A stretch of 64,000 bases of DNA from Candidatus Latescibacterota bacterium (GCA_965261395.1 OZ253462.1:5568001-5632000), one strand, 5' to 3'; shown: positions 18,029 to 43,314, counted from the stretch's first letter. The notes: a model not told the origin generated them from the sequence alone. Made by a program: numbers and translations.

Positions 18029-18068
18029 AGATTCCCCACCCTTGCGGGCGATGATGCAGCGAGCCGAT

Positions 18069-18097
18069 TTGACACTCCGCCCCCCTTCCGCTAGCTT
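18069..18097 (+). promoter_or_regulatory. Sigma70-type promoter for the PorV-like/era/purD/fol/panC operon
   Basis: TTGACA-17 bp-TAGCTT; the same architecture occurs at 46097-46125. Confidence 0.55.
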
Positions 18098-18107
18098 TTT
18101 GTATCTC

Positions 18108-26032: not shown

Positions 26033-27605
26033 CGGTAGCGGATAAATCCCATCAGACGGTTAACCCATACTCGGAGAGTCTTTTTCCAGGATGCCTCCGG
26101 TACCGGTCGATTGGATAACCAGTCGGAAAGGGAGGGTGCATCGCCCCAGAAGGCTTCGAGGCACACGATAACCGGTTCTGGATCGGGCAGCCTGACGATC
26201 ATTCCTGCGCGTTCGCCTATCGTGTGTAGGGAGTTCCCGGAAAACCAAACGGTCCCGTCAACAACCAAGAATCGGTCATGCACAGGAGGCGGGTCGCCTG
26301 TGAGGATGCGAACCTCTGGCTTTGTAGGATAGGACTCAAAGGTGCGGTCAAGGATAGCTAACAGTTGAGATCCAGAGTTGGCGTCAATAGCCAAGGTCGA
26401 AGTCAGAATCCGCAAATCTATGTCAGGCCGGGAAACTGCATGACCAAAGGCGAGCAGTTCTCGGCCGGCGAAATAAGGATCGACGATGAGAACCGTGTCT
26501 CGAGCACTACCTATTTTCTGTCGTATATATTGCGCTGCCTCGCTTGGTACATTGTGAAACCATTGCTGGTCGTAGTCTTTCGCAGCCTGACGGCGTGCCC
26601 GCTGATTCTCCGCCTCGGTAAGCCGCGAGACGATGTCAGCATCCTCCAATGCGTCGCCGATGGTTATCTTCCTTTCCTCTTCAAATTCATCCGCTTTGTA
26701 CTTGTACCCGGGCCGCTTGCGACCATCAACAGGGACATGAACCATCTTTTCGCGTCGGTGCAATTCCATTGTCATATGAATGGCCCTAAGGACTGGCTGA
26801 GGTTCGTGCCAGACCAGCAGGCCATATTTGGGATGCGTGATCGACCTCCCTTCCTTGTAGACTTTAGCCAAAAAGTCGAGAACCGCGATCGCATCATTAC
26901 CAAACTTGTGGATAAGCGTCATCCGTCCACGCAGACGTTCATTGACAATCTCCAAACGCAATCCGTCGAGGCATTGACCTTGTCGGGCCACGAGTTTATA
27001 TGCCACGGTTTCGGCCGCACCCTTCCTTGCCTGCTCAAAGTGGGATTTCTCGACTGACCGGAACAAGGGATTCGGAGCGACTAGACATATTGCGCCTTGA
27101 TAATCATAATATGCCTCGACGATATCGAAATTGAGCCACTCCTCCAACTTTGTCCGGTTTTTGTCCATTCCGATAATCGCGCTGACCTCTGGAGATAGGA
27201 CATCTTTCGGGAACAAGAAATGAGTGCGCGAATCCTGCATCCAGTCAGGTGCGAAAGCTAATTCGTTCGACGTGACAAAGTGAGGCCATGGTGGTTCCGG
27301 CTCGAACGGGCCACCTTCCAACTTCGCACCATCTCCCGATGTTGAGTGATTCGGATCGAGTGGAAGAACGATGTTGCCGTCGGCCATCTTCCGGTACCAG
27401 TCGATTGCATCCTCGACAGGCAGGACGAAACGTCGATAGTAGAGATATTTGCGGCCTTTGTTCCCGACGCGAAAGCCTTTCGGTGGGCAGCCTATGGCGT
27501 CGGGAAACTCATTCGGTCGCAATTCAACCATGCCGAACAGCAAATACCGAACTTGATCATCGCGGAACCAAGCAAGATGTATGATTGCCTGACGATATCC
27601 AGTGA

Positions 27606-28535
27606 GAAGCCGTCTGAAAACCCTCTGATGTAGCCGAATTTGAAAGGGCGTACTCATCGAGCCATATTCAGGTTTCACCACAAAATCTGAACAGAAAGGC
27701 TTGTATAATGAGTACGCCGCGTAGGCAATATGCCACCGATCTAACCGATGGACAATGGCAGCGGATCGAACCGTTGCTGCCCGCGCCGCGCTGGCGGCTT
27801 CACGGTCCGGGTCGGCCGCCGCGGGATCGACGCCAAATCGTCAACGGCCTTTTATATTTGAACAAGACGGGGTGTCCTTGGGCTTTGTTGCCTGCTTGTT
27901 TTGGGCCGTGGAAAACGGGGTATGATTACTTTCGTCGCTGGAGCCTGCAAGGGGTCTGGCCGCCGGTGTTGGATCGGTTGACCAAGCGGGAACGCCGCCA
28001 GAGCGGCCGGGCGGCGATGCCGTCGGCTGGCTGCGTCGATAGTCAGACGATTAAGACCGCAACGCATGGTAAAACAACCGGGTATGACGCCGGTAAAAAG
28101 ATCAAAGGCCGCAAACGGCATTTGTTGGTGGACACGTCGGGTTTGCTTCGACAGGTGGTGGTCACCGCCGCCGATGTCGATGATCGAGAGGGTTTGAAGC
28201 AGGTGTTGACCCGCTTGAAGGCCGCCGGAGTGGCTCGGTTACGCAAGCTGTGGGTTGATGGCGGCTACCAAGGCGAGGCCATCCGAACGTGGGTGGCCAA
28301 CCAAAAAAAGACGCACAAAATAGACTTGGAAGTCGTCGCCAAACAAGGCTCCGGATTTACCCTAGTTAAACGCCGGTGGGTCGTCGAGCGCACCTTGGCG
28401 TGGTTGATGAATTTTCGCCGACATGCGAGAGATTATGAGGTCTTGACCCGCCATAGTGAAGCCTTGATCCAGATTGCCATGATCCACTTGCTACTTAAAC
28501 GAATCAAATGAAAATTAGAGTTTTCAGACGGCTTC
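27606..28535 (+). mobile_element. IS5-family insertion sequence (IS1031-like), 930 bp
   Basis: Perfect 16-bp terminal IRs GAAGCCGTCTGAAAAC / GTTTTCAGACGGCTTC, TGA/TTA flanks, single transposase. Confidence 0.92.
27708..28511 (+). CDS. IS5-family transposase
   Basis: YATDLTDGQW N-terminus, VDSQTIK, GYDAGKKIKGRKRH, WVDGGY and RWVVERT DDE motifs. Confidence 0.95.
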   Translation: MSTPRRQYATDLTDGQWQRIEPLLPAPRWRLHGPGRPPRDRRQIVNGLLYLNKTGCPWALLPACFGPWKTGYDYFRRWSLQGVWPPVLDRLTKRERRQSGRAAMPSAGCVDSQTIKTATHGKTTGYDAGKKIKGRKRHLLVDTSGLLRQVVVTAADVDDREGLKQVLTRLKAAGVARLRKLWVDGGYQGEAIRTWVANQKKTHKIDLEVVAKQGSGFTLVKRRWVVERTLAWLMNFRRHARDYEVLTRHSEALIQIAMIHLLLKRIK

Positions 28536-28585: not shown

Positions 28586-30172
28586 TCACCGGACCAGCAT
28601 CAACCGGCGCGTCCGCATTTCCCCGCCGACCTTCAGCACGGCCCAATACGCCCCGCTAGCCGCGCGCTCACCGCTCCAATGCGCCAAGTGCTTCCCGGCC
28701 TTGAGCCGCTCCTCCATCAAAAGGGCCATGCGCTGGCCCAAGGCATTGTATATCGCCAGCTCGACGTCCGCTTCCCTTGCCAAGTGAAAGGGCAGGTTCA
28801 CCGCGCTGTTGGCCGGGTTCGGATAAGCCGGCTCCAAGTTGCTGGCCCCGGCTCGCTCCTCTGTCTGCATGGCTACGACTGTAGGCGTAACATACCGGGC
28901 CGCGAGGGCAAAATTCCCACCCGCCGACGAGGCTCTGCCGACGATGACCGCCGCGCTATCTACGTCCGCAGCCTGCACCTGCCCTGCGTTGTCCGCGCGA
29001 AGTTCCATCGCGATCAGCTCGCCGCGCTGGCCGCGCATGGCGTACACCCACACGGCATAGTCCCCCTCGGCCGCGCCGGCGAAATCAACGGCTACATCGC
29101 CCTCAGAGCGAATGACCACATTGGCCGCGCCCCATTGGCTGCCAACCTCACCGGCCAGTTCCGCGAAGGGCACCTCGGGTGCGGCAACCGCAGCGGCGCG
29201 GCGGCCGCGCAGAGCCTCGTACCCAGCCGCGTAGTTGGCCGCGATCCACAAACGCCACGCACCCGCGTAGTTCTCGACCCAGCTTTGGTTCTTAAAGGCG
29301 TCGTCAATGCCCAAAATGCCGTTGCGCGGCTCGGCGACGATTTGGCGAATCAGCCCCGGACCATAGTGCTCGGCTAAAAAAGAGGCGAACAGATAGGTCT
29401 TGCCGTAGCTCGCCGAATTAGACACCCAGTGCGTTAGATTGATGCTGGGATCCGCGAGAAAACTCGGCACCATGCTCGGGTCGGCCTCGGGGAAACCGAC
29501 TAGCTCCTCGGCGTACCCAGAAAGTCCCTCGTCGATCCATTCCTCCTCGTCGGAATCGCGGCCCCAATGGATGAGGTGCTGAAATTCGTGCGCTAAGGTC
29601 GCGTGGGCGAGGTAGGCGCTGAAGGCCAGCTTGCTCGCGTCGAGATAGACCGTATCGCGCCGCAGTTCGGGCAGCAGTACTTCATACACATTACCGTCAA
29701 AATAGCCGACTATGTTCTCGCCTGGCAGGTCCAAAATCAGAATGAAGATGCGGGGATCGCCGTCCTCATCGGCAGGCTCGCCAAAAGCATCGACCGCTAT
29801 TTCAAATACTCCGCGCTCGGGATCAGTCGGAGTCGCCGCGTCGAAAAGCGCGCCCAGCTTATCCACATCCGGCTGGGCCGCGATAATGTCCCACTGGCTT
29901 TCCTCGACGAAGATATAGCAGTGCGTTCCCTTGTAGCGGCAGGTAGCGAACTTGAGCACAGGTTCGAGCGGCGCGTAAAAGGCGAGCTGAGTCCCCACTT
30001 CAATGGGGCCTAGCTCTTGACTTGCGCCGACTGCCTTGACGGCTGGCGCAGGGAAAGACGCGCGGTTCTGCTCAAGCCAGCGAGTCCCGCATATCCGCTC
30101 TTCGGCTGCGACTGCCAGCGGCAGCGAGAGCATCCACGCGGTTAAGGCAACCCGCGGAAAAAAGCAGGCCAT
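28586..30172 (-). CDS. Secreted HEXXH metallopeptidase (M30/M6-like) with T9SS-type C-terminal domain
   Basis: Start re-called at 30172 (TGATG overlap); signal peptide, ICGT, AHEFQHLIH...WIDEGLS and CTD AYPNP...IYNALGQ...SGAY...RRLMLVR. Confidence 0.8.
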   Translation of the reverse strand: MACFFPRVALTAWMLSLPLAVAAEERICGTRWLEQNRASFPAPAVKAVGASQELGPIEVGTQLAFYAPLEPVLKFATCRYKGTHCYIFVEESQWDIIAAQPDVDKLGALFDAATPTDPERGVFEIAVDAFGEPADEDGDPRIFILILDLPGENIVGYFDGNVYEVLLPELRRDTVYLDASKLAFSAYLAHATLAHEFQHLIHWGRDSDEEEWIDEGLSGYAEELVGFPEADPSMVPSFLADPSINLTHWVSNSASYGKTYLFASFLAEHYGPGLIRQIVAEPRNGILGIDDAFKNQSWVENYAGAWRLWIAANYAAGYEALRGRRAAAVAAPEVPFAELAGEVGSQWGAANVVIRSEGDVAVDFAGAAEGDYAVWVYAMRGQRGELIAMELRADNAGQVQAADVDSAAVIVGRASSAGGNFALAARYVTPTVVAMQTEERAGASNLEPAYPNPANSAVNLPFHLAREADVELAIYNALGQRMALLMEERLKAGKHLAHWSGERAASGAYWAVLKVGGEMRTRRLMLVR

Positions 30173-30777
30173 CAGTAGAAATGCCGCACCAAGAAGAACG
30201 CCGCTCCCGCAGGCCCCACCGCCACCTTGGGCGCGAAGCCGGTCTGAGCTTGATCCGCGCGAGCCACCCGCGCCGCATGGATGGCGGACACGAGGTGATT
30301 GACGACCACCAATCCCGTCATATAGAGCGCCTGCCGTTGCGTGTGCTGGCTTGCATTGCGCAATTCGCGGTAGCGCTGGCGCGACTCGTCGCGATCCCAT
30401 TCCCAGAAGAAGTCCGCGTCCACAGGATAGAGCTCGGCGTCAGGGCCGTCCTTGTAGCGGGCGAACTGGTTGTGCTCCAGCCGGCTCGCATAAAACCCCA
30501 AGTCGTCGAAATAGGCGCGCCCCTTGCCCTCGGGCCGCGCACCCGCTCGTTCCGCCGCATGCGCCTGGTACTGATCGCGGCGCACTTGGCCCAACCACTC
30601 AAAGCCATAATAGCCCCCCCAAAGCGCTAACTCAGCGGCCAAAAAGCTACCGCCGCCGCCTCGGGCGTATTTCTGCCCCCAACCGGGTACCAGCAAGGAG
30701 CGCCAAAACGCCCCTTGGGACTTCCCGGCCTCAGCCACGCCGGGCAGCAGCAAAACCAACGCAATCCATCGCCACAT
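30172..30777 (-). CDS. DUF5683-like secreted or membrane protein
   Basis: Signal peptide from ATG 30777, RSLLVPGWGQKY and VVVNHLVSAIHA motifs. Confidence 0.6.
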   Translation of the reverse strand: MWRWIALVLLLPGVAEAGKSQGAFWRSLLVPGWGQKYARGGGGSFLAAELALWGGYYGFEWLGQVRRDQYQAHAAERAGARPEGKGRAYFDDLGFYASRLEHNQFARYKDGPDAELYPVDADFFWEWDRDESRQRYRELRNASQHTQRQALYMTGLVVVNHLVSAIHAARVARADQAQTGFAPKVAVGPAGAAFFLVRHFY

Positions 30778-30781
30778 CAGC

Positions 30782-31711
30782 TCAATCCAACGGTTTGTAC
30801 GCCATGAGCATGGGCACGCGCGCCCGCACCCAAGGCTGCATGACCAACGCAAAGCGCGTCCGCCGCCGCAAGGCCGCTTCGTCGGCACCCTCAGCGCGCG
30901 CCCGCGCCACCCGCGCCGCATCAATGGCGCTGATAACGTGGTTGATCAGGATGACCCCGCTTACCGTGGAGGCTCGCTTGAGAAAGCGATTGCTCTCGTC
31001 GCGCTGGTCTTCGTAGCGGAGCCGTCGCTCGGAATGGAAATTTTCGACCGAATCGACTTCGGTTGGCGCGACGGCATTGCCGGTACTGCGCCTCACTAGA
31101 TCGGTCCAACCGGATGCGAATTGGTCGTATTTGCCAAGTAGCTCGTAGTATTGCTGAATCTGGCTAGACTCGCACCCGCCAAAGGCCGCACTCCCCAACC
31201 CACTTGTTTGCTGCTGCTGCATCCACTCGTTTCGCGCCGGAATGTACACATTGACGACCTCGCTACTACAAGGTAGCGCATGCGTGATCGAGGAATTGTT
31301 CGAGATCGTCGAGCCGCGCCAAACCAAGTAGTTGAGCGGATCCCAGTGTTCGTCGGCCACCGCCCGGAACTCTTCCTCTACATCGTTGCCCTTGTCCTTC
31401 CAAGCCGCCCACATGCCTACCAGCGCGGCTTCGGCCCCGAAAAAAGCTAACGCCCGCTTCTTCGACCCCGCATACCACTCGCCCAACCCCGGCACCAGCG
31501 CGGAAAGCAAAAACGCCCGCTTTGACGACTTGCCCTTGCGCGTCTCTGTGCGCGGCATCGGTGCCGGCTCAGGATCAGCATCGCCTTCCACCGCCCGCAA
31601 TCCCACCAAGAACGCCTGTCCCTCCTCGCTCAAAATACTCGGCAATCCCTCGGCCCGGACGCCGGCGGCGGCTAGCACGGCAACCACCAGCGCGATTCCT
31701 GTCCTCGTCAT
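30782..31711 (-). CDS. DUF5683-like secreted or membrane protein (paralog)
   Basis: Signal peptide, LSALVPGLGEWY, QQYYELLGKYDQFASGW and ILINHVISAIDA motifs. Confidence 0.6.
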   Translation of the reverse strand: MTRTGIALVVAVLAAAGVRAEGLPSILSEEGQAFLVGLRAVEGDADPEPAPMPRTETRKGKSSKRAFLLSALVPGLGEWYAGSKKRALAFFGAEAALVGMWAAWKDKGNDVEEEFRAVADEHWDPLNYLVWRGSTISNNSSITHALPCSSEVVNVYIPARNEWMQQQQTSGLGSAAFGGCESSQIQQYYELLGKYDQFASGWTDLVRRSTGNAVAPTEVDSVENFHSERRLRYEDQRDESNRFLKRASTVSGVILINHVISAIDAARVARARAEGADEAALRRRTRFALVMQPWVRARVPMLMAYKPLD

Positions 31712-31751
31712 GCTTGCTCCTTTCTATTGCGGCAGCACCCAATCATCATCT

Positions 31752-32379
31752 CTACCTCCTCTGCATCACGACAATGCGGTTCGAATTAGTTCCGCGCTTG
31801 TTGTTGTCAACGCCCCACATATTCGAGGTCTTGGTAAACGTCTGTTCGTTGATTACGACGCAGACCGGTTTCCACGCCGTCTCTTGCGCAACCTCGGCAA
31901 CCACGCGATCGAGCAACAGCGATCCCCGCCGGATTTCGCCCACCTCAAATGCAAACACCCCACCAGGGTGCGCTATCCTCGGGCAGGGCCGGCGGGTCCA
32001 ACCGCGCCTCCACGAGAACGCGGGACAGGGGATTGACGTCGTTGCCGATCACGTCCCGGCCGAGCAAGACCGCTTCGAGCAATGTCGTCCCACGCCCCAT
32101 AAACGGGTCGAACACCACGTCGCCGGGGTCCGTCAGCCGCTCGATGAAAAAGCGCGGCAACTGCGGCTTAAAACACGCCCGATAGGAAACCTCGTGCAGC
32201 GAGTGCGCGGCGCGTTGCTTGGACGTCCAGAACTCATTGGCGAATACGGGAATGCCGTCGCATTCTTCAACGACCGTCTCCTTGTCGTAGCGCCGCCATT
32301 GTTCAAGCTCGCGTTTGAACTCGTCGAGCACCAGACAACCCTTACCAATAGAAGGGAACTGGTGTTGCAATTGTCGCAA
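31752..32379 (-). pseudogene. DNA amino-methyltransferase remnant with internal deletion
   Basis: N-part YRACFKPQLPRFFI...DPFMGRGTT...GNDVNP (SAM motif I) is joined out of frame near 31970 to a C-part (HPGGVFAFEVGE...GTNSNRIV); no S/DPPY catalytic motif is present. Confidence 0.7.
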
Positions 32380-32405
32380 TGTGCGCCCCTAACAATCTGC
32401 GTCCC

Positions 32406-35400
32406 CTACAAATACCCGAACAACACCGTAAAATAAGACTTCCACCGCCCCTTATCTTGCACCTCGTCAATCCCATACGCCACATCCACCTGCACCCGCG
32501 TCGGCACGCTGTAATAAGAAATCAAATCAAAGCGCAACTGCCCCCCCACATCCCGCAGTGGGCCGTCGCGTCCATACCGTTCGTTCCACTCGCCTATGTT
32601 TCGGTCCCAAGCCTTGCCCATACTGGTGTACACTGCGCCATATACTTTGTCGAAATACAACTGCGCAACGCGCTTGCCCAAATTCGGCAGCAGAGGAAAG
32701 CGCAGCGTCGCCGTGCCCATCAGAGCCTTGCGCCCCTCGATGCTATAAAAAGTATAGCCCTTCATAAAGTTGAGGCCGCCGAGGCGGTAGTCGAAGAAAT
32801 CGCCGACCCGCGACGTGTCGTTCACCGCGTCGTTGTCGATCCAGCCGCCGTACAGCCGCAGGCCCAAGCGGGTATTGCCGGGCATGGCCATGTATTCCTT
32901 CCAATCGACGGTAAACTGATTGTAAAAGAGCTTGATGTAGTTCTCGTCGATAAAGGACGCCTGCTCGTTAAAGCCGTCGATAAAATAGTTGAACATCCGG
33001 TCGTAGCGCGCGTAGAGCTGGCGGCCCACAGGGCTTATATCGCGGTCCCGCCGCCGCGCAATCATCTCCATCCGATAGGTCAGCCCCAAGCCAAAGCCAT
33101 TGAGATAGGTATAACCAAAGGGCCTTTGCCGCTGGCGCTCAAAGCCGAGGCCGCCGTCTCGGCGCGGCACAAAAGCCTCCCATTGGACGCTGGCATCGTA
33201 GCGTTCGTACGTGGCTGAGGCCGTCAGCTCCACATGGCGACCCAATTTACCGCGCACCCCCGCGCTGAGCTGGCTCAAGTTGAAGTTGATGGCGTTGACA
33301 ATGCCCGCCCGCGCCTCCGAGCTATCGCCGCGAGCCGAGCGCCGGCGCTGGTTGAATAGCTCTAAAAAGAAGGTGGGACGGAATCCCTTGAACTCGTATA
33401 TGGCGAACAGTTCGCGGTCGGCATTGGCCGGCGCAATGGCACCCCCGGCGAATATGCTCTGGCGGTTGAGCACATCGCCAGAGGTGAGGTACGCGCCCGC
33501 CTTGAAATTCCCCTCGTCCATGAACAGCCTCGGCAGGATTCCGGTCTTGAGGAAGTCGATGCCATACGCTTGGGGCGTGCTCGGCAAGGCGGGGGCCGAC
33601 GTGCCACGCCAATCCAGCGGCATGTCTTGGGAAAACCACGCCTCTTCAGCCGCCACCGGCGTCCCCTCGTCCTGCAACTGGCGAATCTCAAAGCCGGCCG
33701 ACGTATAAGCTGCAAAGACGACCTCGCCCTCCGAGCCGACCGATGGGCTGAACGCACCGCCGATAGTATTAGTTATCTGCCGCAGCGCGAGCGTTTCCAA
33801 GTTGAGGGCATAAATATTGAAAATGCCGCTGAAATCCGACGCAAAGACGATCTCCGTGCCGTCCGCGCTCCACGCTGGGTCCCGGTCCGTGCCAGGCGTG
33901 GCAATGTCGAATACCCCTTCGTCGAGCAAGGGCGTTGCAGCGGCGGCGTCCGCGTCTAGTTGCACCACGGCGATGTCGCGCTGTCCCTCGCGCGAGATCG
34001 CAAACGCCAGCTTGCGTCCGTCGGGCGAAAAGCGCGGCGTGTAGAGCTGGGTGCCATCCGCAAAGTGGGTTAGATAGCGCAGCCCCGTGCCGTCGGCCCG
34101 CATCATCGCCAAATTGTTGCTGGTGTCCTTGTTTTGCACGAAGACGATCCATTCGCCATCGGGCGAATAGGTCGGGTACAGTGCGCGCAGCCCGCGCGTC
34201 AGCCGCTTGACGCGCGGCGTCTCCGGTGCCGTGCCGCTAACCATAGCCGGCACCAACCACAGCATATTGCGCCAAAAACTAGGGCCAGCGGCAGCGGAAT
34301 TCCACTCGTAGATATCCGCCTGCCGCGAACCGTATTTGTCGGCCCGGTCGATGCGCGAAAAGAGCAGCTTGCGCCCGTCCGGCGACCAATCCACGGTCGA
34401 AGCCGCCGCTGGGAAGACTGCGACTTCCTCCTCGCCCGTAGCGAGGTCGCGCACGATCAAGCCGTGCGGGTAGTGGTGCCGCTTGCGCGTTGACAGATAC
34501 GCCAATTTCTCGCCGTTGGGTGCCAGCCGCGGCCGCAGATTGGAAAAGCCGACATCCACGATCCGCTCGCCCTCGCGCAGCGGCCCCAACGCCGCCACCT
34601 GCGCCCGATAGCCCTGCCGCAGGGACTCGATCCACTCGCCGTATAGCTCGTCCGCGCTCTTGCCCAAGACCTTTTTGCACGCCCCGTCAATGGCGAGCGC
34701 GTGCCACTGCGACGAGGCCCGGTACAGCGCGGCGATTTTTTCTTCACCGTACATCTCGGCGATATAGCGCACCAAGCCAAAGCCGTGGTCGTACACGTAT
34801 TCGTTGCCAAAGCCCTGCTTGCCAAAGACGCCCATCTGGTCGAAGGATAGCTGCTCGTCCGCCAGCACCAAGGAGCGGAGCACCATGTCGCGGTTGGCAT
34901 CCCAGCGGTCGTGAGTCGTAGTCGCAGTCCCGTACTGGGCCGCGCCCTCGGCCAGCCACATGGGCACCACCGTGCCCATCACTGGATAGGAAGCGATGAC
35001 ATCCGGATAGCCGATGAGAATGTCCGGTCGGTTTTTCTCTCGTTGGTAGCCAAAGTACTGCAAGTAGAGCGCGGGGACGCGCTGTACGCCTTTGCGCGCA
35101 GCACCGAGCGAAACGATGTGGGCAAATTCGTGGGTTATTACGTTGCGCAGCCAGTCTGAACTGCCGCGCAAATCGAAGTCGTGGTCGAGCGACGTGGCCC
35201 AGATCTCAATGGTGTCTTGATAGAAAAAAGCCGCGCCATTGGCGTAATCGTCGTGGTCCTTGAGCACGATCCGCACGCGCCCGTCGGGCGCGTACCCATA
35301 CAGCTCGGTAATGGGCGCGTACGCGGCTTCGGCAATGCGCGCCGCCCGCGCCGCCGCCCCATCCAGCCCCTCGTGATAGAAGATGCGGAAGTGCTCGGTC

Positions 35401-35516
35401 TCCACCACCTGCCACGCCAGCTCCGGGTGGTTTTGGGCAAAGGACGCGCTCGCCCAACTGAGCATCAGGCAAAGTACGCACAGCCCGGCCAGCAGCGGGG
35501 TGGTCAGTTTCCCCAT
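32406..35516 (-). CDS. Peptidase MA-like + TolB/PD40 propeller + Omp85/BamA-like barrel fusion
   Basis: Signal peptide, ETEHFRIFY, THEFAH...WLAEG, repeated (W/Y/F)SPDG blades and C-terminal LGG..FMKGY..IEG plus aromatic-rich barrel strands. Confidence 0.75.
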   Translation of the reverse strand: MGKLTTPLLAGLCVLCLMLSWASASFAQNHPELAWQVVETEHFRIFYHEGLDGAAARAARIAEAAYAPITELYGYAPDGRVRIVLKDHDDYANGAAFFYQDTIEIWATSLDHDFDLRGSSDWLRNVITHEFAHIVSLGAARKGVQRVPALYLQYFGYQREKNRPDILIGYPDVIASYPVMGTVVPMWLAEGAAQYGTATTTHDRWDANRDMVLRSLVLADEQLSFDQMGVFGKQGFGNEYVYDHGFGLVRYIAEMYGEEKIAALYRASSQWHALAIDGACKKVLGKSADELYGEWIESLRQGYRAQVAALGPLREGERIVDVGFSNLRPRLAPNGEKLAYLSTRKRHHYPHGLIVRDLATGEEEVAVFPAAASTVDWSPDGRKLLFSRIDRADKYGSRQADIYEWNSAAAGPSFWRNMLWLVPAMVSGTAPETPRVKRLTRGLRALYPTYSPDGEWIVFVQNKDTSNNLAMMRADGTGLRYLTHFADGTQLYTPRFSPDGRKLAFAISREGQRDIAVVQLDADAAAATPLLDEGVFDIATPGTDRDPAWSADGTEIVFASDFSGIFNIYALNLETLALRQITNTIGGAFSPSVGSEGEVVFAAYTSAGFEIRQLQDEGTPVAAEEAWFSQDMPLDWRGTSAPALPSTPQAYGIDFLKTGILPRLFMDEGNFKAGAYLTSGDVLNRQSIFAGGAIAPANADRELFAIYEFKGFRPTFFLELFNQRRRSARGDSSEARAGIVNAINFNLSQLSAGVRGKLGRHVELTASATYERYDASVQWEAFVPRRDGGLGFERQRQRPFGYTYLNGFGLGLTYRMEMIARRRDRDISPVGRQLYARYDRMFNYFIDGFNEQASFIDENYIKLFYNQFTVDWKEYMAMPGNTRLGLRLYGGWIDNDAVNDTSRVGDFFDYRLGGLNFMKGYTFYSIEGRKALMGTATLRFPLLPNLGKRVAQLYFDKVYGAVYTSMGKAWDRNIGEWNERYGRDGPLRDVGGQLRFDLISYYSVPTRVQVDVAYGIDEVQDKGRWKSYFTVLFGYL

Positions 35517-35615
35517 AGAAGAGTTCTCCTCAGCTCGAAATAAAATGATGCCTCTAGTACTAAGGCGATCTCACTGCTGCAAAGGCACTCCTCTCGCAAT
35601 GCCCACTTGGCGACC
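35477..35615 (-). repeat. Duplicated leader and signal-peptide module, copy A
   Basis: Nearly identical to 39453-39601, including AGTACTAAGGCGATCTCACTGCTGCAAAGGCA. Confidence 0.9.
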
Positions 35616-35633
35616 AGACAAAACGCCAACCCT

Positions 35634-38375
35634 TCACTGACTTACAGCCATTTTGACCACGGCTTCTCCCCGCCGCCCGTCGTCGCCGTGTGCGATCAAT
35701 CGGCATAGATACAGGCCGCTGGCAGAGCCTTCCACCGACCAAGTAATTTCGCGCTCACCGGCTGCCAAGCCGTTGCTGCGGTGCCGCCCAACGCGCCCGC
35801 CCAACGCATCAAACACCTCCAATTCGATGCGTCCGGCCGCGCTCAACGCAAAGCGCAAATGCGCATCTTCACCGGGGCCGACTGGATTGGGATAGCAATA
35901 GACCCGGCCTAGCAAGGCTGCCTCTGGCTCTACAACGGGCCGACCAGCTACCAGCGCAGCCCGCGACCCAGCCGCATCGGCACCCGCCTGCGGCCAATGA
36001 GCTGGCCCCCCAGCATACTGCGCCGCCACCTTAAGCAGATCCCACGCATACACGGCCGTGCCATCCAAGGCCGCTAACGCCAAGCGACCATCGCCGTCTA
36101 AGTCCAATACCACCGGCGACGCTGTCGGAGGGGCGGTCATCAGCAGGGGGAAGCCCGACAAGGGCCGCCCATCGTCGTCCACGCCGAAAATTCCACTGTA
36201 GCCGGCGACGAATATCTCCTGCTTGCCGTCGGCATCCACGTCGCAAAGCACCGGCTCAAAAACGAGATCGCCGATCTCGGCAAAGCGCGGGAAAGCAGCG
36301 GGAAAGTCGGCGTGGCGCAATCCGTCGGCTCGCAGGGCGTGTATCGCTCCATTCCGCGTAACCAGAACCACTTCCAACAGACCATCGCCGTCCAAATCGC
36401 CTAGGACCGGCGGCGCGGCTAGCGAATCGCCCAACTCGACTACATGCGATCCGATCGCGACCCGTCCTCCGGCCGTAGCGAAGACCCACTCGACTTGGCC
36501 ATCGCCATCCAAATCGCCGGCCGCCGGGGACAACGAGGCTATGGCCTCCAGCCGCTTTTGTTCCTTCAACTCGCCGCTTATGGCATCTACCACGTAGATC
36601 TGTTCCGCTCCGATAAGCAGCAGCGCGGCCTCCGCACTCGTGCTGAACTGCGCGTCTGACGGCACCTCGTCCAGCGCGAGCTGCCACAGCGGTTGGTCGG
36701 CCCCGGCGTCCCACGCGCTGACCTCTGCGTCGCGCCACAAGAAAAACTCGGGCCGGCCATCGCCGTCGCCGTCGCCAGCAGCCAGCAACCGCGCCCCAGG
36801 TACTCGCCACGCCGCCACGCCATCGCCGGTTGCATAGCCGACCCCACCCCCGGCCTCAAAGAGCAACTCATCCACTCCGTCGCCGTCCAAATCCGCAGCT
36901 TGCAGCCGGCCATCGCCCGGTAACTCCCGTGGCCAACCCGGACGGGCACGTCCAAAGCGTATGGCCACCTGCATAGTATCGCCAAGTGCGGAAAGCACTT
37001 CGATCTCAATGCCGGTCTCCCACTCCCGATTGCTGCGCGAATCGGGTTGAGTCGCCGAGCCGAACAGCGTTTGTCCACCGGCAAAGAACGGATCGTCGGG
37101 CGATCCCTCGATTTGCCGCTGCCGCTCAAAGACCGGATGGCCAATGTCGCGGTACCCATCGGCCTCTTCCAAGGCAATCCCCTGCCAATGGGCCTGATTG
37201 TTCGCGGTATTGGAGTCCGCAGCACGTGCCATCACGCCCTCATCTACATGCCATATCAGCACCCCCGACCCTGAGACAAAGGCGTCGTATTCCTCCATCG
37301 CGGTCCACACGCCTTGTTCTATAGTGATCTGCTCGGGGTCAATCCACACCTTTCCTTCGTCTTCGCCCTCCTCAACGCCGCGCTGCCCGCGCTGCTGCCT
37401 ATTCTCCAGCAAGAAGTATTCGCGCGCGTCAATGGGGATGCGCACGGCTTTGGGAAGATCGCCGCTACGGTCGGTCGCCAGCAGCGATAGTACGGTGTCG
37501 CGCCGCACCACCACCGGCTCAATCCACCCTAGCTGCATCTTGCTCCAAGCCATCGGATGCGGCGGCGCGAAGCCAACCACCCAAGCGAGACTGTCGGTCC
37601 GCACGTAGCCCGAAACGTTGGCCCCCACGTCCATCAGGCTCCAGCCTCCTAGGGCCGGCACACCGGCGGCGAAATTGGACAACCCAGGCAGGCCCAACTG
37701 GTGGCCAAAGAACTTGGCCAGCAAGCCATTGAGGCCGGCCCGGCCATTGATACTGGGCGACTCCGGCAAGATCCACGCCTGATCGATCGCTGCGTCGCCC
37801 ACGGTCAGCGGGCCGCCGTTAAAGTGCGCAAAATCGCTCTCCGCTAGGAAGACCGAGCGGATATCGTTCAGCTCGCCGGTCTCGTAGCCAACCCCGGCGT
37901 GGAACACGAGAAAGCTGTTGAATTCGTCCAAACGCGGGCCGTCGGGATCGGCCAGCGCGGCATGCAGGGCATCGCTCACCAGCTCGATCCACTTCACACC
38001 GATCTCCTCAGTCGTACGTCCGTTGCCGTAGTGGAGCATAGATTGGGGAAGCGTGTACGCCTGCCGAGCGGCGCGGGGGAACACCTCGGCGGAAATCGCC
38101 ACCTGACCGGCAGAAACGACCTCGTAATAGCGCGCCAGCGCAGTCAGGTGCCGCTCGAAATACGCGCGGTCGTGCGGCGGCACGTCGTAGGGAAGCGCGT
38201 ACTCTTCGGCTGCCTCCTCGGCCGAGCGCAGATCAAACGCGCCGGTGCCGGTCGTCGTGAACTCATCGGGATTTTCGCGCGGAAAATCGACGCGCAAGGC
38301 TAAGATTCGCCACTCGGCGTCGGCCGCGGTGGCCGCTGACAACAGCAGTGAGAAACAGAAGCCTAAGAGGAGCAA
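35634..38375 (-). CDS. M6 (InhA)-like degenerate peptidase domain + FG-GAP repeats + T9SS-type CTD
   Basis: ILALRVDF, VFHAG, AKFFGHQLGLPG, WSLMDVG, WSKMQLGW, EYFLLENR, several DLDGDG repeats and YPNP...SGLY CTD; start codon uncertain. Confidence 0.8.
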   Translation of the reverse strand: MLLLGFCFSLLLSAATAADAEWRILALRVDFPRENPDEFTTTGTGAFDLRSAEEAAEEYALPYDVPPHDRAYFERHLTALARYYEVVSAGQVAISAEVFPRAARQAYTLPQSMLHYGNGRTTEEIGVKWIELVSDALHAALADPDGPRLDEFNSFLVFHAGVGYETGELNDIRSVFLAESDFAHFNGGPLTVGDAAIDQAWILPESPSINGRAGLNGLLAKFFGHQLGLPGLSNFAAGVPALGGWSLMDVGANVSGYVRTDSLAWVVGFAPPHPMAWSKMQLGWIEPVVVRRDTVLSLLATDRSGDLPKAVRIPIDAREYFLLENRQQRGQRGVEEGEDEGKVWIDPEQITIEQGVWTAMEEYDAFVSGSGVLIWHVDEGVMARAADSNTANNQAHWQGIALEEADGYRDIGHPVFERQRQIEGSPDDPFFAGGQTLFGSATQPDSRSNREWETGIEIEVLSALGDTMQVAIRFGRARPGWPRELPGDGRLQAADLDGDGVDELLFEAGGGVGYATGDGVAAWRVPGARLLAAGDGDGDGRPEFFLWRDAEVSAWDAGADQPLWQLALDEVPSDAQFSTSAEAALLLIGAEQIYVVDAISGELKEQKRLEAIASLSPAAGDLDGDGQVEWVFATAGGRVAIGSHVVELGDSLAAPPVLGDLDGDGLLEVVLVTRNGAIHALRADGLRHADFPAAFPRFAEIGDLVFEPVLCDVDADGKQEIFVAGYSGIFGVDDDGRPLSGFPLLMTAPPTASPVVLDLDGDGRLALAALDGTAVYAWDLLKVAAQYAGGPAHWPQAGADAAGSRAALVAGRPVVEPEAALLGRVYCYPNPVGPGEDAHLRFALSAAGRIELEVFDALGGRVGRHRSNGLAAGEREITWSVEGSASGLYLCRLIAHGDDGRRGEAVVKMAVSQ

Positions 38376-38439
38376 GGGGGCTAAATCGCAGCGTTGCCGC
38401 GCAGCGCGGCAACAAAACCAGCGTCCGATTGGAACACCC

Positions 38440-39492
38440 TCAGAAAATGATGTTCAGGGAAATCGGCGTATTGTCTCCCACCACCGTGTCCTCGTTGCCG
38501 ATTATATACGCCACATCAAACTGGAAGCGATTGTACTTTAGCCCAACGCCAAAGGTCTTGGAATGTACCTCGCCGTCGGTGTCCTGAGAAAGGCCCGCCC
38601 GCAACGCGATGAACGCCTCGCCTTCGCGCGCGGAAAGCCCGTATTGGTATTCGCCACCCACGTGCAGATCCATCTCCTTGAACTCGTTGCTCAAGCCCTC
38701 GTCGGCCCATGCCGTGGCCAAGTTGCTGACAAAAGACCCATCGGCAATCAGAGGTTTGTATAGGTCAAAAGAGAGCATCAGGTCGTTGTATTGGGTATCC
38801 ATCACGTCGTAGGCCACCCCGACGACGATGTGCTGGGGCAGCGGATCGGCCTGTTCGGCGTCGATATAGGCGATTTTGGGGCCTAGGTTGCGCAGGGCCG
38901 CGCCAAAGCTGAGGCTGGGGACGGGCTTCCACAAAAATCCCAGATCCGCGGCAAAGCTGTTGCCCACACCCCGGCCCCGCTCAATGCCGGCCCCCACATC
39001 GGCCAAGTTGCTGCGGATAAACTTCAAGCCGATGCCAGCAGACGTATTGTCGCCAATATCTGCCCCGTAGGCCGCAGACATAGCCACGTCATAGCTGCGG
39101 AAGGTGCCTTGTTGGTTGCCGCGCTCGTCCGTGCGGATCTGCTCGCCTAGATTTAGCAGCGCGACGTTAAAGCCGAAGTTGCCCCACCCCTCCACGGGCA
39201 TGGAATAGGCCAAAAACTCGTAGGACAAGTCGTCGGCCAGCTTCGGCAGCCACTTGGTGTGCGAGAGGTGGATCTTTTTCTTGGTCTGCCCGACGAGGGC
39301 AGCCGGATTGAAGTAGCTGGCCGTGGCGTCGTCGGCCACTGCCACGTACGATTCACCCATGGCAATGGCACGGGAACCCGGCTCGATCAACAAAAGAAGC
39401 GGAGCACTTCGGCTCTCGGGCGTGGCCTGGACCTCATCGGGCAATGCACCCGCGCAAAGGCCGGCCAGCAGCAGGGTCGTCAGTTTCCTCAT
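38440..39492 (-). CDS. PorV-like outer-membrane beta-barrel
   Basis: LLIEPGSRAIAMGESYVAVADDATASYFNPA, HTKWLP, NLGPKI and DPLP motifs; terminal Phe; directly downstream of the PorU-like gene. Confidence 0.8.
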   Translation of the reverse strand: MRKLTTLLLAGLCAGALPDEVQATPESRSAPLLLLIEPGSRAIAMGESYVAVADDATASYFNPAALVGQTKKKIHLSHTKWLPKLADDLSYEFLAYSMPVEGWGNFGFNVALLNLGEQIRTDERGNQQGTFRSYDVAMSAAYGADIGDNTSAGIGLKFIRSNLADVGAGIERGRGVGNSFAADLGFLWKPVPSLSFGAALRNLGPKIAYIDAEQADPLPQHIVVGVAYDVMDTQYNDLMLSFDLYKPLIADGSFVSNLATAWADEGLSNEFKEMDLHVGGEYQYGLSAREGEAFIALRAGLSQDTDGEVHSKTFGVGLKYNRFQFDVAYIIGNEDTVVGDNTPISLNIIF

Positions 39493-39601
39493 AGCGGAGT
39501 CCTCCTCAGCTAAAAATAAAAATATAAAATGATGCCTCCTAAGTACTAAGGCGATCTCACTGCTGCAAAGGCATTCCTCTCGCAATGCTCATTTGGCGAC
39601 C
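39453..39601 (-). repeat. Duplicated leader and signal-peptide module, copy B
   Basis: Spans the PorU-like stop, the intergenic region and the first 13 codons of the PorV-like gene; nearly identical to 35477-35615. Confidence 0.9.
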
Positions 39602-42600
39602 TGCAAGACGGCGCGGCGCGCGACCGCAGCACCACTTCCCCGCTCGGCCTCTATCCGGTAAATATACGCACCGTTGGCCAAACCCGTCGGCGGTGTCCAA
39701 GGCACTTGGTTGTAGCCAGCGTGCGTCTGTCCGTCTAGCCGTTCTATCAGCCGACCGGCCAGCGAAAAAATCTCTATCTGCACAGCGCGCATGTCGTCTG
39801 CTAGCTCATACGTGAAGTAGCCGCTATCGCGCATGGGATTTGGGTAAAATAGAACATTGGCAAGGCCCGCGTCGCCTTCGTCGTCCCCGACCGCGACCGA
39901 CACCGTCGCACGCGACGAATTGTTGAAGTTGTCCCAGACCTTCAGGTGGAACTCGTGTTTGCCCGCTTCCAGTTCGGGCAGGGGAAATTCAATGACCCCC
40001 TGACGATAGTCTCCGCCCTGCACGCTGTAAAGCTCCGTCAATGTGAAGAACTGGCCATCGATGGCCAGCTCGATTTCGTGCCCGGTCTCTCCAGTGATGT
40101 TGATGCCGCTGGGATCCTCAATCGAGGCCAACAACACCGTTTGCCGCGGAATCGTGGTGCCTTTGGCCCCCTCGAAGCGCAGGGAGATTTCCGGCCCCTC
40201 CACGTCCGCTTCCACGCCTGCGGCCGTACCCGCTAGCACCAATCCTTCAGCCGCGCCAAAGGCCGCCGGGCTATCATCGCTCCAAACGTAGGCGCTGATG
40301 CGGCCGTTCTCCCCTCCGTAAGTAATGTCTTTAGGCACCCGAAACGCGGCGCGGAAGCGGCCCTCGGCTACTGGAAAGCGACCGCGAAAAATGGGGGCAC
40401 CGGTCTGCTGGTAGGTATAACCCTCCAAGACACTCTCTTCACTCGAATCAAATGCCTGCAACCACACTTGGCCCTCATAGGTGGTGGCCGGCGCACCAGC
40501 CGCGTCGAGAACTTGGCCGGCCAGAGCCACTTCGCCGAGGGCGTGGAGCGAGTCGGCCGCGTCGATCTGCACCTGAAAGCGCGGCATGGCCAAGCGCGTC
40601 GCCGGGTCGCCGAAGAGCGAGTAGCGCTGAATGTTGCGGAATGTACGGAATGCAGTGGGGCCACTGGGGGAATACAGCGGCAGCAGTAATTGCTTGGCCT
40701 CGGTGAGGGCCAGCCCAATCGGCACGTGCTTCCGCCCAGTGTAGTACATCTGCTCGTAGAACTGGTTGGCCAACCGGACATTGGTGTCGTGCCACCCCAC
40801 CCGAGTCGCGCAAATCATGCCGATCACGCCCCCATCTTCCTTCTTCAGGAGCGCCTCGGGAATGGAGATGCGCACTGGATCGTCGAACACCCCCACTTGA
40901 CTCGCGGCCGTGAAAAACAAGGGCAGGCGACCGCCGTTTTTGACATCGTCCAAATCGCGGGAAAGCAAGAACATCCACTCGTGGGCCAGGCGGTCGTAGG
41001 TGCCATGCCCCAGATAGGTCATAATGAGCGCACCCTTGTTGAAGAGCCGGATGAACTCGTCTCGCGCTCGCGGCTTAGTCTGTCCCTCTAAGGGGAATTG
41101 GGCGATGTAGAGCTTGGTCATGTCCAACGCCTTGGGCATGACGTTTTGGGCCATGTATTCGCTGTCGTTGAGAAAGTATTTCTCGACATTAAGCGGCTTG
41201 TCTCGATTGAACAAATCATCTGCAACAAGCGCCACTCGGCTCTGCCAAGGCCCCAATTCAGGTGCGCGGTCGTAGGCGATGATCTTGTCGGCGAGCGCGT
41301 CGGCCTCAGCCGCGGTCTGCACCGTCAGCCGACCAATGGCCATGTCGGGGAACAAATCATCCCCTACCACGCGCGTGTACCACTCGTCGTACGTGCTGTC
41401 TCCGTCTTGGAAGGGCGGGATCCAATTGCCCTGACTGAGGGCCGAATTGTTCTTGTAGTCGTACGAGCCATCGCCGACCAAGGCTACGAATAGGGGTGCG
41501 GGATCCCAGTGCTCGGCCGCATAGGCGAGAAAATTGCGAATCGCCGCTGGGTCCAAAAGTCCGCCGGAAAACTCGTCGTATATATCTTGTACGTCGATGG
41601 CCATTGTCCGCAGGGGCGGACCGAAGCGGTCGTCTTCAGCCCGCCATTGCGCCAAGCGCTCGGCCGCGGCGCGGAAATCGCGGTGGTAAATCGCCACCCA
41701 ATCGGCCCCCCAGCCCCCAATCGTCAAATCGCCGGGCAAATCGAGCTCGATCCGCACCGGTCGCTTCCAAGTCGCCGGGCCGCCCACTGTGTACTGACGC
41801 GGCACATCCCCGGGCCGATCCTGAAAAATTACCGTCCCAGCTTGCGCGTCGAACTCGAAGTCCACGACCTCGGCCAAGCCCGCAGAGACCTCAAAAGTGC
41901 GCGGCCGCTCGTCAGCAAAACTAGCGAGGCGGAATTGGGTGGTGCCCGTCAGCGGGTAGGTGAAGATCAACTCGCCGCGCTCGGCGACAAAGCCGCGGCT
42001 GTATTCCACCTCGTACCAATCGAAGCGGGACGGATTACCGGAGTGAACGATCCCCAAGTGGTTCAGCCCCTCCTGCGCCCCCATCGGTGCCCACAGCGTA
42101 TCGGATGCAACGGGCGTCTGACCAGATTCCCCTGGAATTGTAAAAGCCACCCTTCCGATAGTCTCTTCGTTCCAGCGCACCGAAAAACGCGGCCGCGTTT
42201 CGGGTGCCCCGATAAAGCCTAAGCGCACGGTCACCGGCTCGGGCACGGCCTGCCGCACCACCACCGGAAAATTGCGTGCATTGCCGCGAAAGTCCTCCCA
42301 GTACCAAGTGTAGCCGGACTTGATGCTATAAAGTTGATTGAGAACGAACTGCTCGGCTTCCTCGTGGATTCGCACCCGATAGCTCGTGGGCTGCTGCGGG
42401 TCGGACGCCACCAGAGCACCGCTCCTTTGCTCGGCCCGCCGTCCCTCGCCCCCACCGCCAAAACCCAGCCAGTACGCGTTCTCGCGCGTGTAGAGGTTGT
42501 GTCGATATTGAAACGAGCGGCTATCCAGCGCGTACTCCCAGCGGCTGACCGGCTCGGCCCAAAACAAGACGAAGTCGTCCGCGTCCAAGCGGCCATCGCC

Positions 42601-43314
42601 GCCGTCTTCTACCACCAAGCCCACTTCCGGCATGGCTTGAGGCGGGTTCACCGCGCTGAGGGACAAGGCTTTGCCGCCGCCGTAGTGCAGGCGCAAGCTC
42701 GCCGGATCGACGTCGCCGAGCGACACCCCGGCGGCCTCTAAGTCGGCACCCGCTATCCTGTACATTCCCTCTTCTGAGACGAAGATCCGCAGCCAAGTCC
42801 CTTCTTGCAACGCGGCCTTGCGCGCCGACCGCTGCTTGGGTGGCAATCGCCAGTTCCTAGCTTGCTCGGGATTGACGAGCGCCCCTTGGTAGAATGCTTC
42901 GCCCCAAGGGTCGGCAACGCGGGTGCCGCCATGGCCGGTCACATGCAGGTCAACGACGATGCGATCGTACAGGGTCCGCGTCCCGTCTGCTTCGACGCGC
43001 GGAGCAAACGCCACCGGAACGACGCGCTGGCGACGCGCAAAACCACTCTCGCCGAGGAAGACCGGCTCGGGCGTAGGCACATCGTCTTCAGCGGCGCGAT
43101 CCGTCCGTGCTACGTGGGCTTCGACCAACTCCAAACGAACCTGTCCGTCGATTGGGACGCCGATCAAGGCACCGCGCCCCTGCTCCAATTCTTGGCCCTC
43201 GGGGAGCCAAACCAACCGCAGGCGCTGTGGCGTCTGTTCGCTCACACGCAATTCCGCCGTGGCCGCACTCCCGCAAAAAAGAGCGAGCGCCCAAAAGCAG
43301 CATTTGAATCTCAT
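39589..43314 (-). CDS. PorU-like C25 (gingipain-family) protein with CTD
   Basis: IYDEFSGG..DPAAIRNF, LVGDGSYDYK, IGRL, YLGHG, FTAASQVGVFDD, LFGDPA, FRVPKDI, SGINITG..GH, KVWDNFNN and YPNP CTD. Confidence 0.85.
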   Translation of the reverse strand: MRFKCCFWALALFCGSAATAELRVSEQTPQRLRLVWLPEGQELEQGRGALIGVPIDGQVRLELVEAHVARTDRAAEDDVPTPEPVFLGESGFARRQRVVPVAFAPRVEADGTRTLYDRIVVDLHVTGHGGTRVADPWGEAFYQGALVNPEQARNWRLPPKQRSARKAALQEGTWLRIFVSEEGMYRIAGADLEAAGVSLGDVDPASLRLHYGGGKALSLSAVNPPQAMPEVGLVVEDGGDGRLDADDFVLFWAEPVSRWEYALDSRSFQYRHNLYTRENAYWLGFGGGGEGRRAEQRSGALVASDPQQPTSYRVRIHEEAEQFVLNQLYSIKSGYTWYWEDFRGNARNFPVVVRQAVPEPVTVRLGFIGAPETRPRFSVRWNEETIGRVAFTIPGESGQTPVASDTLWAPMGAQEGLNHLGIVHSGNPSRFDWYEVEYSRGFVAERGELIFTYPLTGTTQFRLASFADERPRTFEVSAGLAEVVDFEFDAQAGTVIFQDRPGDVPRQYTVGGPATWKRPVRIELDLPGDLTIGGWGADWVAIYHRDFRAAAERLAQWRAEDDRFGPPLRTMAIDVQDIYDEFSGGLLDPAAIRNFLAYAAEHWDPAPLFVALVGDGSYDYKNNSALSQGNWIPPFQDGDSTYDEWYTRVVGDDLFPDMAIGRLTVQTAAEADALADKIIAYDRAPELGPWQSRVALVADDLFNRDKPLNVEKYFLNDSEYMAQNVMPKALDMTKLYIAQFPLEGQTKPRARDEFIRLFNKGALIMTYLGHGTYDRLAHEWMFLLSRDLDDVKNGGRLPLFFTAASQVGVFDDPVRISIPEALLKKEDGGVIGMICATRVGWHDTNVRLANQFYEQMYYTGRKHVPIGLALTEAKQLLLPLYSPSGPTAFRTFRNIQRYSLFGDPATRLAMPRFQVQIDAADSLHALGEVALAGQVLDAAGAPATTYEGQVWLQAFDSSEESVLEGYTYQQTGAPIFRGRFPVAEGRFRAAFRVPKDITYGGENGRISAYVWSDDSPAAFGAAEGLVLAGTAAGVEADVEGPEISLRFEGAKGTTIPRQTVLLASIEDPSGINITGETGHEIELAIDGQFFTLTELYSVQGGDYRQGVIEFPLPELEAGKHEFHLKVWDNFNNSSRATVSVAVGDDEGDAGLANVLFYPNPMRDSGYFTYELADDMRAVQIEIFSLAGRLIERLDGQTHAGYNQVPWTPPTGLANGAYIYRIEAERGSGAAVARRAVLQVAK

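Follow-up and report, generated by a model that had tools for sequence, protein, structure and literature searches.

A conserved PorU-PorV operon in Latescibacterota, probably part of a type IX secretion variant without a detectable GldKLMN motor

The window analysed here is a stretch of 64,000 nucleotides (nt) from Candidatus Latescibacterota bacterium (GCA_965261395.1, OZ253462.1:5568001-5632000). Between positions 28586 and 43314 it carries seven co-oriented and closely spaced genes that appear, with a probability of about three in four, to form a conserved outer-membrane sorting and attachment operon of a type IX secretion system (T9SS) variant, one which works without the GldK/L/M/N (PorK/L/M/N) motor-and-ring. 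In the order of transcription these encode PorU, PorV, an inactivated M6-like protein (M6i), a peptidase-propeller-barrel fusion (Fus), two DUF5683-like proteins (D1 and D2), and a HExxH cargo protein with a C-terminal domain (CTD). The motor-less T9SS architecture is widespread across the sampled phyla and, among the SprA-bearing genomes of one second-phylum sample, M6i/Fus and GldM are mutually exclusive.

Reviews present the T9SS as belonging to the Bacteroidota and driven by a motor. T9SS parts outside the Bacteroidia are mentioned in the cited passages of two of them (PMC11285876, PMC11205867), while PMC8542988 names the T9SS in its reference list only. The Latescibacterota are a member of the FCB group. 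No literature was found that pairs type IX secretion with Latescibacter, and among the matches listed none combines the T9SS with Zixibacteria, Calditrich*, Marinimicrobia, KSB1, or Latescibacter*. Nor was a description of a motor-less T9SS, or of this operon architecture, found in literature judged mostly from titles and abstracts.

The operon and the type IX secretion genes of its genome

The seven genes lie on the minus strand, and scans of open reading frames (ORFs) against family models confirmed both their arrangement and the families that a sequence-only reading had assigned to them. The first, at 39589-43314, encodes a PorU-type T9SS sortase of 1241 amino acids (aa) that itself carries a CTD (NF033707 at 618 bits, where the cut-off is 420; Peptidase_C25 at 3.7e-79). 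It is followed at 38440-39492 by a PorV-family outer-membrane barrel of 350 aa, read from the ATG at codon 32 (NF033709, 233 bits against 90; PF19572 PorV, 9.2e-17); the longest ORF extends to 39585, and the length of 346-351 aa in relatives supports the codon-32 start. M6i, at 35634-38375 (913 aa), is made up of an inactivated M6-like metalloprotease domain, an FG-GAP propeller, and a CTD (best model NF052323, 1.6e-85; TIGR03296; FG-GAP_3, 6.4e-17). Fus, at 32406-35516 (1036 aa), joins a signal peptide, an MA-type zinc peptidase, a TolB-like PD40 propeller, and an Omp85-type barrel, as identified by PD40/TolB models and by fold.

Downstream of Fus are D1, at 30782-31711, a DUF5683-like exported protein of 309 aa with a faint DUF5683 match, and its paralog D2, at 30172-30777, which aligns with D1 over its entire length. 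D2 is 201 aa when read from the ATG at codon 50 of an ORF extending to 30924, as is its same-genus ortholog. The last gene, at 28586-30172, encodes the HExxH metalloprotease-like T9SS cargo with its CTD (TIGR04183, 28.8 bits against 23). Started at codon 77 (ATG) of an ORF that extends to 30400, this protein has 528 aa, with a MXAN_6640 HExxH domain (2.8e-9) and HEFQH at residue 271. The PorV, D2, and HExxH starts were shortened from the longest ORF by start-codon inspection and ortholog lengths. On this reading 4 nt separate D1 from D2, and the HExxH gene shares one base with D2; elsewhere in the operon the gaps are 64-117 nt, except for 694 nt between Fus and D1. The three CTDs, in PorU, M6i, and the HExxH protein, had been described as of the YPNP...(S/N)GxY type and indeed read YPNP...(N/S)G(A/L)Y...; they belong to the only three CTD proteins of the window.

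The genome is a metagenome-assembled genome (MAG), a single 6.55-Mb contig with a completeness of 95.3% and a contamination of 8.0%. The window was said to hold no PorK/L/M/N or SprA/Sov-like gene, and none of the 52 ORFs scanned in it matches a SprA or GldK/L/M/N model. SprA is present elsewhere in the genome as a 2164-aa frame at C1:2065172-2070727 (TIGR04189, 595 bits against a cut-off of 200). It lies 3.5 Mb from the operon, and the cluster is therefore not self-contained. There is a single PorU and a single orthologous PorV, together with 12 weaker PorV-family barrels, and 222-225 proteins end in a CTD according to a hidden Markov model (HMM) iterated from the three in the window. One of the 12 weaker paralogs is the separate PorV/PorQ-family barrel on the plus strand of the window, between glycerate kinase and era. 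A second PorV-like gene had been noticed here and is present, at 18042-19034 rather than at 18108 (NF033709, 101 bits against 90; best model PorV2, NF052325, at 152 bits against 325).

By comparison, the motor is not detectable. The TIGRFAMs for GldL, GldM, and GldN (including TIGR03513 and TIGR03517) have no matches in this genome, and the GldK models matched FGE-sulfatase domains only. Four further HMMs were built from the canonical gldK-L-M-N operons of nine genomes of the second phylum (8-9 operons) and run unfiltered on every six-frame ORF of 80 aa or more (22,999 in all). The best E values were 0.18 for L, 0.27 for M, and 2.6 for N, and K again found FGE-sulfatase domains only, at 85 bits at most. 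The neighbours of the three GldK-like FGE-sulfatase genes are unrelated to the motor, and four gene pairs with a transmembrane layout like that of GldL and GldM are likewise unrelated. The PorZ_N Pfam model, the only one tried for PorZ, gave one weak match to a propeller (25.8 bits, C1:5646359-5646610), beyond which PorZ was not identified. A complete canonical T9SS elsewhere in the genome, combined with an unconserved gene order, would have spoken against a non-canonical module; what was found is that GldL, GldM, and GldN are not detected and that the order is conserved.

Three other loci in this genome carry related genes. SprA adjoins divergent lptF/lptG (C1:2062064-2071408, these two named by eye), its other neighbours being unrelated. 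Another full-length Fus, a paralog of 1132 aa scoring 582 bits against the family HMM, is found by itself at C1:5734117-5737515, without T9SS neighbours. At C1:1109169-1112608 two adjacent PorV-family barrels lie beside a CTD-tailed protein, which may be a private carrier-cargo set.

Gene order and the distribution of GldM

Fus occurs in 150/151 Latescibacterota genomes. SprA is above its cut-off in 100/101 and GldM in none of the 101, where there is a single 20-bit match. About 20 kb around Fus was compared in 20 genomes of the phylum, with Fus identities from 93% to 34%, and the gene order is strongly conserved. M6i is directly upstream of Fus in all 20 loci. PorV upstream of M6i, D1, and D2 are each in place in 19, the remaining locus for each being at a contig end. 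PorU adjoins PorV in 12, with two others at contig ends. The operon ends with the HExxH/CTD gene in 13 loci; in five, its last gene is a second, divergent Fus of full length. A 'barrel-less' Fus paralog was considered as the last gene of some operons and rejected, as the genes concerned are about 1020 aa and match the barrel positions too.

A comparison of 20 PorU-anchored loci from public records extends the order beyond the phylum. One locus labelled Gemmatimonadota has the full PorU-PorV-M6i-Fus-D1-D2 series, while several short or KSB1 loci have PorU alone. Three are PorU-PorV-M6i-D1-D2 without Fus, one of them with about 2 kb between PorU and PorV, and one labelled Latescibacterota and so perhaps inside the phylum. 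In two of these Fus-less genomes (G152, G351) there is no Fus anywhere at E<=1e-30, and in the third there is a partial match elsewhere. The cluster had been described as built around the Omp85 fusion, a description with which these two genomes do not agree.

A genome with GldM was needed as a positive control and was slow to appear, with three phylum-level samples and ten single genomes blank (including 0/61, 0/31, 0/5, and 0/5). In the fourth phylum sampled, 10 of 41 genomes match GldM, 9 of these above cut-off. This second phylum we infer to be the Bacteroidota in the broad GTDB sense, partly from its canonical gldKLMN operons. In a sample of 101 of its genomes, all searched for GldM, M6i, Fus, and SprA, GldM is above cut-off in 25. 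M6i is present at E<=1e-20 in 43 (37 above the NCBI cut-off), and full-length Fus (best profile E below 1e-100) in exactly the same 43. GldM and M6i/Fus occur together in none, although one M6i genome has a 36-bit GldM-like match. SprA is above cut-off in 80, these being all 25 with GldM, all 43 with M6i, and 12 others. The related genomes are not independent, and the tallies therefore describe lineages and are not a statistical test.

The 12 other SprA-positive genomes, without GldM or M6i/Fus, are G252, G257, G267, G285, G295, G299, G322, G326, G327, G331, G342, and G343. In some of these the SprA scores equal those of GldM-type genomes, and they may represent a third architecture or carry divergent motors.

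Within the second phylum, 9 of 13 Fus loci have PorU-PorV-M6i-Fus-D complete. In the remaining four, the order is the same and the frames are split (one locus), a contig end interrupts the operon (one), or M6i does not lie alongside Fus (two). These operons carry one D gene only, which starts within 39 nt of the Fus stop codon or overlaps it in 11 of 11 loci, by 4 nt in five of them. In three genomes (L183, L184, L185) the operon abuts lptFG and sprA, with LptF_LptG confirmed there by Pfam, an adjacency that hints at a link between lipopolysaccharide export and T9SS attachment.

Two further phylum-level samples have M6i in 61/61 and 30/31 genomes and GldM in 0/61 and 0/31. The second of these includes a KSB1-titled genome, and M6i and Fus are adjacent in a KSB1 genome. 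The operon order is found again in two or more phylum-level groups besides the Latescibacterota. With GldL/M/N not detectable in the genome, GldM in 0/101 genomes of its phylum, and the control positive, the proposal of a sorting module that depends on the CTD and belongs to a T9SS of non-canonical type is supported.

The genome has a full translocon, shuttle, and sortase, with about 222 proteins in its secretome, and no detectable motor, and the same is seen in every sampled phylum group that carries the operon. If secretion works in these bacteria, then SprA-based export does not intrinsically require the motor, or else it has an energiser that has gone unrecognised, for which the M6i/Fus/DUF5683-like operon is the obvious place to look. 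The T9SS parts outside the Bacteroidia, the NCBIfam model for M6i, and the architecture of Fus, catalogued in 2014, are already known. The controlled absence of GldL/M/N, the phylum-wide tallies, and the strict co-occurrence of M6i and Fus to the exclusion of GldM in one phylum are new, as are the persistence of PorU-PorV-M6i-D where Fus is missing, the DUF5683-like partner, the lptFG-sprA adjacency, and the Cys-to-Ser PorU.

Protein features, proposed working, and rival explanations

The catalytic His of PorU is kept (GHG, H770), as it is in all 23 PorU sequences aligned, while Ser (S805) stands where relatives carry the catalytic Cys. That the S805 column is that of the catalytic Cys is our assumption from the His-Gly and Ala-Cys pattern which we take to be that of clan CD. 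The Cys, in a T-C-(D/E)-F motif, is present in 3/3 GldM-type PorUs, 7/7 M6i-type PorUs of the second phylum, and 4/13 from the Latescibacterota; the other nine, including that of the window, have Ser. The Ser form may be a sortase that naturally uses Ser as its nucleophile, or it may be inactive. PorU is described as a cysteine peptidase and sortase-like transpeptidase in the cited passages of PMC5445135.

The HExxH site of M6i is degenerate (AKFFGH) in all 20 Latescibacterota orthologs and absent in all seven from the second phylum. The NCBI family NF052323, 'T9SS-dependent M6-like inactivated metalloprotease', shares its domain order, dead active site, and CTD. In samples from two other phyla this family exceeds its cut-off in 37/101 and 11/31 genomes. 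The window protein is a divergent relative of this family and not a member by the NCBI rule. Published work pairing type IX secretion with immune inhibitor A or FG-GAP was, among the matches seen by title or abstract, unrelated.

Taken alone, D1 and D2 reach 16.4 and 16.5 bits against DUF5683 (PF18935), where the gathering score is 26.7 (E about 0.01). Across the D family 22 of 33 members match it at E<=0.01, the best at 9.7e-6. The D1 model (predicted local distance difference test score, pLDDT, 80) has two helices of about 40 residues as a hairpin with a small domain at its tip, together with a C-terminal beta-hairpin whose last residue is aromatic; a fold search found generic helical hairpins only (best Z 6.6). 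S70, P74, G75, E94, W202, and A265 are invariant across 43 D1, D2, and D sequences. No functional account of DUF5683 was found among the titles and abstracts covered, and the cited part of PMC13744359 places a P. gingivalis DUF5683 protein among vesicle proteins, its location given as 'unknown'.

The Fus model (pLDDT 81.4, predicted template modelling score 0.82) consists of a helical/sheet peptidase with HEFAH at residue 129, followed by a propeller (about 315-620) and, after a short linker of poor model quality, by 16 long strands (659-1033). For the propeller, Z is 25.5 to TolB (1c5k), with a root-mean-square deviation (rmsd) of 2.5 over 241 aligned residues, and 19.4 to tricorn. The barrel matches Deinococcus radiodurans BamA (8xnb_B) at Z 20.6, with an rmsd of 4.9 and 314 of 369 residues aligned. 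H129, E130, H133, and E190 do not vary among the 31 aligned homologs (37-91% identity). Over the same 31, at E<=0.01, Pfam finds PD40 in 31, Peptidase_MA_2 in 30, and Omp85 in 11 (best 9.8e-9). In the window protein itself Peptidase_MA_2 falls short of its gathering score (25 bits, where 32.4 is required), and PF01103 has no match at E<=0.01. A search of the PDB with the Fus profile returned propellers only, and the whole-model Foldseek search was dominated by propeller matches.

A TolB-like propeller on an Omp85 barrel is also the design of the 'WD40-like' Omp85 subfamily of Heinz and Lithgow (2014, PMC4104836). For its member H1XQ58 the cited part of the supplement gives as best hits the BamA barrel c4k3bA, TolB c2ivzD, and the aminopeptidase c1z5hB, which is the three-part design of Fus, so that membership of Fus in this family is suggested by architecture rather than by sequence alignment. 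These proteins are viewed in PMC4104836 as BamA-BamB-like fusions, their role unknown, and operon and T9SS are unmentioned in the passages concerned. The operon described here would give this uncharacterised subfamily, and DUF5683, a concrete and testable context. Propeller-gated peptidases of the TolB, tricorn, and S9 types also combine a propeller with a peptidase, and the joining of a peptidase to a PD40 propeller suggests gated access of peptides. Unlike these, Fus has a zinc catalytic domain of the MA clan, is fused to a membrane barrel, and has no Tol-Pal context.

The Bacteroidota T9SS (Por in P. gingivalis, Gld-Spr in F. johnsoniae; PorU-PorV-PorZ-PorQ with Sov/SprA) has in common with the system described here SprA, a PorV-family barrel, a C25-type PorU, and type-A CTD cargo, and in both porU is adjacent to porV. 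That PorU and M6i bear CTDs of their own recalls PorU and PorZ as described in the cited passages of PMC5445135. The differences are that GldK/L/M/N are not detectable here, that a conserved M6i, Fus, and DUF5683-like D have been added, and that Ser takes the place of the catalytic Cys of PorU in this lineage.

By analogy with Porphyromonas and Flavobacterium, cargo would cross the inner membrane by Sec and then pass through SprA, after which PorV would take it over and hand it to PorU for removal or exchange of the CTD. M6i would be a catalytically dead, CTD-bearing surface partner of PorU and PorV, comparable to PorZ, which PMC8545088 presents, in the part cited, as a partner serving PorU. 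Fus would be anchored in the outer membrane by its Omp85-type barrel, with its zinc peptidase gated by the TolB-like propeller in the periplasm, and would be an accessory rather than a pore. The peptidase most likely faces the periplasm, as in other Omp85 proteins. That it might clear CTD peptides or stalled cargo is a tentative proposal, with somewhat less than an even chance at best. D1 and D2 would be helical envelope proteins made together with Fus, and the D of the second phylum its co-translated partner.

Several observations weigh against a motor-less sorting operon of this kind. PorV does not reach the equivalog NF033710 (157 bits against 250), and M6i matches NF052323 in two stretches at 288 bits against an equivalog cut-off of 600. 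The genome is a MAG of 95.3% completeness and 8.0% contamination, and the absence of GldL/M/N rests on sequence profiles, which could miss a structurally analogous motor that is not recognisable. The sortase chemistry of PorU in this lineage may differ or be lost. In 6 of the 20 Latescibacterota loci the upstream DNA is present and PorU is not beside PorV. The genomes of five of these (loci L165-L169; G007, G057, G063, G136, G103) were searched, and hold elsewhere only a longer PorU-like gene. These longer genes, 1874-1991 aa frames from three Latescibacterota families, score 205-270 bits, below the PorU cut-off. The exclusion of GldM by M6i tracks lineages and may reflect shared descent and not functional replacement. 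In addition, each functional step, with the placing of the Fus peptidase and of D1 and D2, is by analogy with characterised systems.

The sequence-only reading gave Fus a dedicated part in assembly or translocation, either inserting barrels of the PorV and SprA types or moving CTD cargo across the outer membrane. The 16-strand barrel with its likeness to BamA, the Omp85 matches in 11 of 31 homologs, the fixed place of Fus inside the operon and its presence in 150/151 genomes of the phylum, and its company in the second-phylum sample (with M6i 43/43, with GldM 0/25) would all suit such a part. The model is without a POTRA domain, however; Pfam finds none, and the N-terminal 620 residues are predicted to be peptidase and propeller. 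This lack, together with the invariance of the HExxH...E site in all 31 homologs, which argues for catalysis, suggests that Fus is an enzyme rather than a translocator. SprA is present in 100/101 genomes of the phylum and no second pore is therefore needed, G152 and G351 keep PorU-PorV-M6i-D1-D2 in the absence of Fus, and a full-length Fus paralog stands alone elsewhere in the genome, so that a dedicated assembly or translocation role is unlikely. Quite improbable is a type Vd-like autotransporter, whose barrel would export its own peptidase-propeller passenger to the surface beside PorU. An N-terminal enzyme ahead of an Omp85 barrel has this layout, and the cited passages of PMC4104836 describe the patatin-like PlpD as an Omp85 protein delivering an enzyme domain to the surface, but the Fus passenger would be of about 590 residues including a full TolB-like propeller, with no POTRA between it and the barrel.

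M6i, Fus, and the DUF5683-like proteins might instead do the job of GldK/L/M/N themselves and release PorV-bound cargo from SprA in another way, which is distinctly unlikely. Candidate routes would be engagement of a Tol/Ton-type inner-membrane motor by the TolB-like propeller of Fus, or a trans-periplasmic link made by the D proteins, with the invariant E94 in a hydrophobic helix and the helical hairpin of some 40 residues. Were it true, the 25 genomes with GldM, 43 with M6i and Fus, and 0 with both would represent two engines on one translocon. It is very improbable indeed that the genes are neighbours by descent only, with Fus, D1/D2, and the HExxH protein being general envelope housekeeping without a role in type IX secretion. 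Housekeeping genes do surround the operon, Fus has stand-alone paralogs, and DUF5683 proteins occur also in P. gingivalis (the cited part of PMC13744359). Against this, gene order survives across phyla and at protein identities from 93% down to about 30%, there are overlaps between start and stop codons, and Fus and M6i are jointly present or absent in 101 of 101 genomes of one sample.

Other features of the window

The 694-nt gap between Fus and D1 (31712-32405) contains a DNA methyltransferase fragment of 144 aa on the minus strand (31945-32379; N6_N4_Mtase, 1.9e-14). In the same-genus genome L044 there are 2.2 kb with longer ORFs at this site, one of which reads like a methyltransferase by eye. 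The gap is missing in more distant relatives, and this stretch is therefore a lineage-specific, and seemingly decaying, insertion in the operon.

A scan for promoters and terminators gave about as many matches as shuffled controls (4 against 4.2 and 18 against 17.7). The rest of the window is housekeeping genes, apart from a low-GC islet at 23740-28511 (GC 0.53 against about 0.62) directly downstream of the operon. Of the three unannotated genes in the islet, that at 26029-27681 has an N-terminal domain of the VPA1262 family; the islet ends in an IS5-family transposase (27708-28511).

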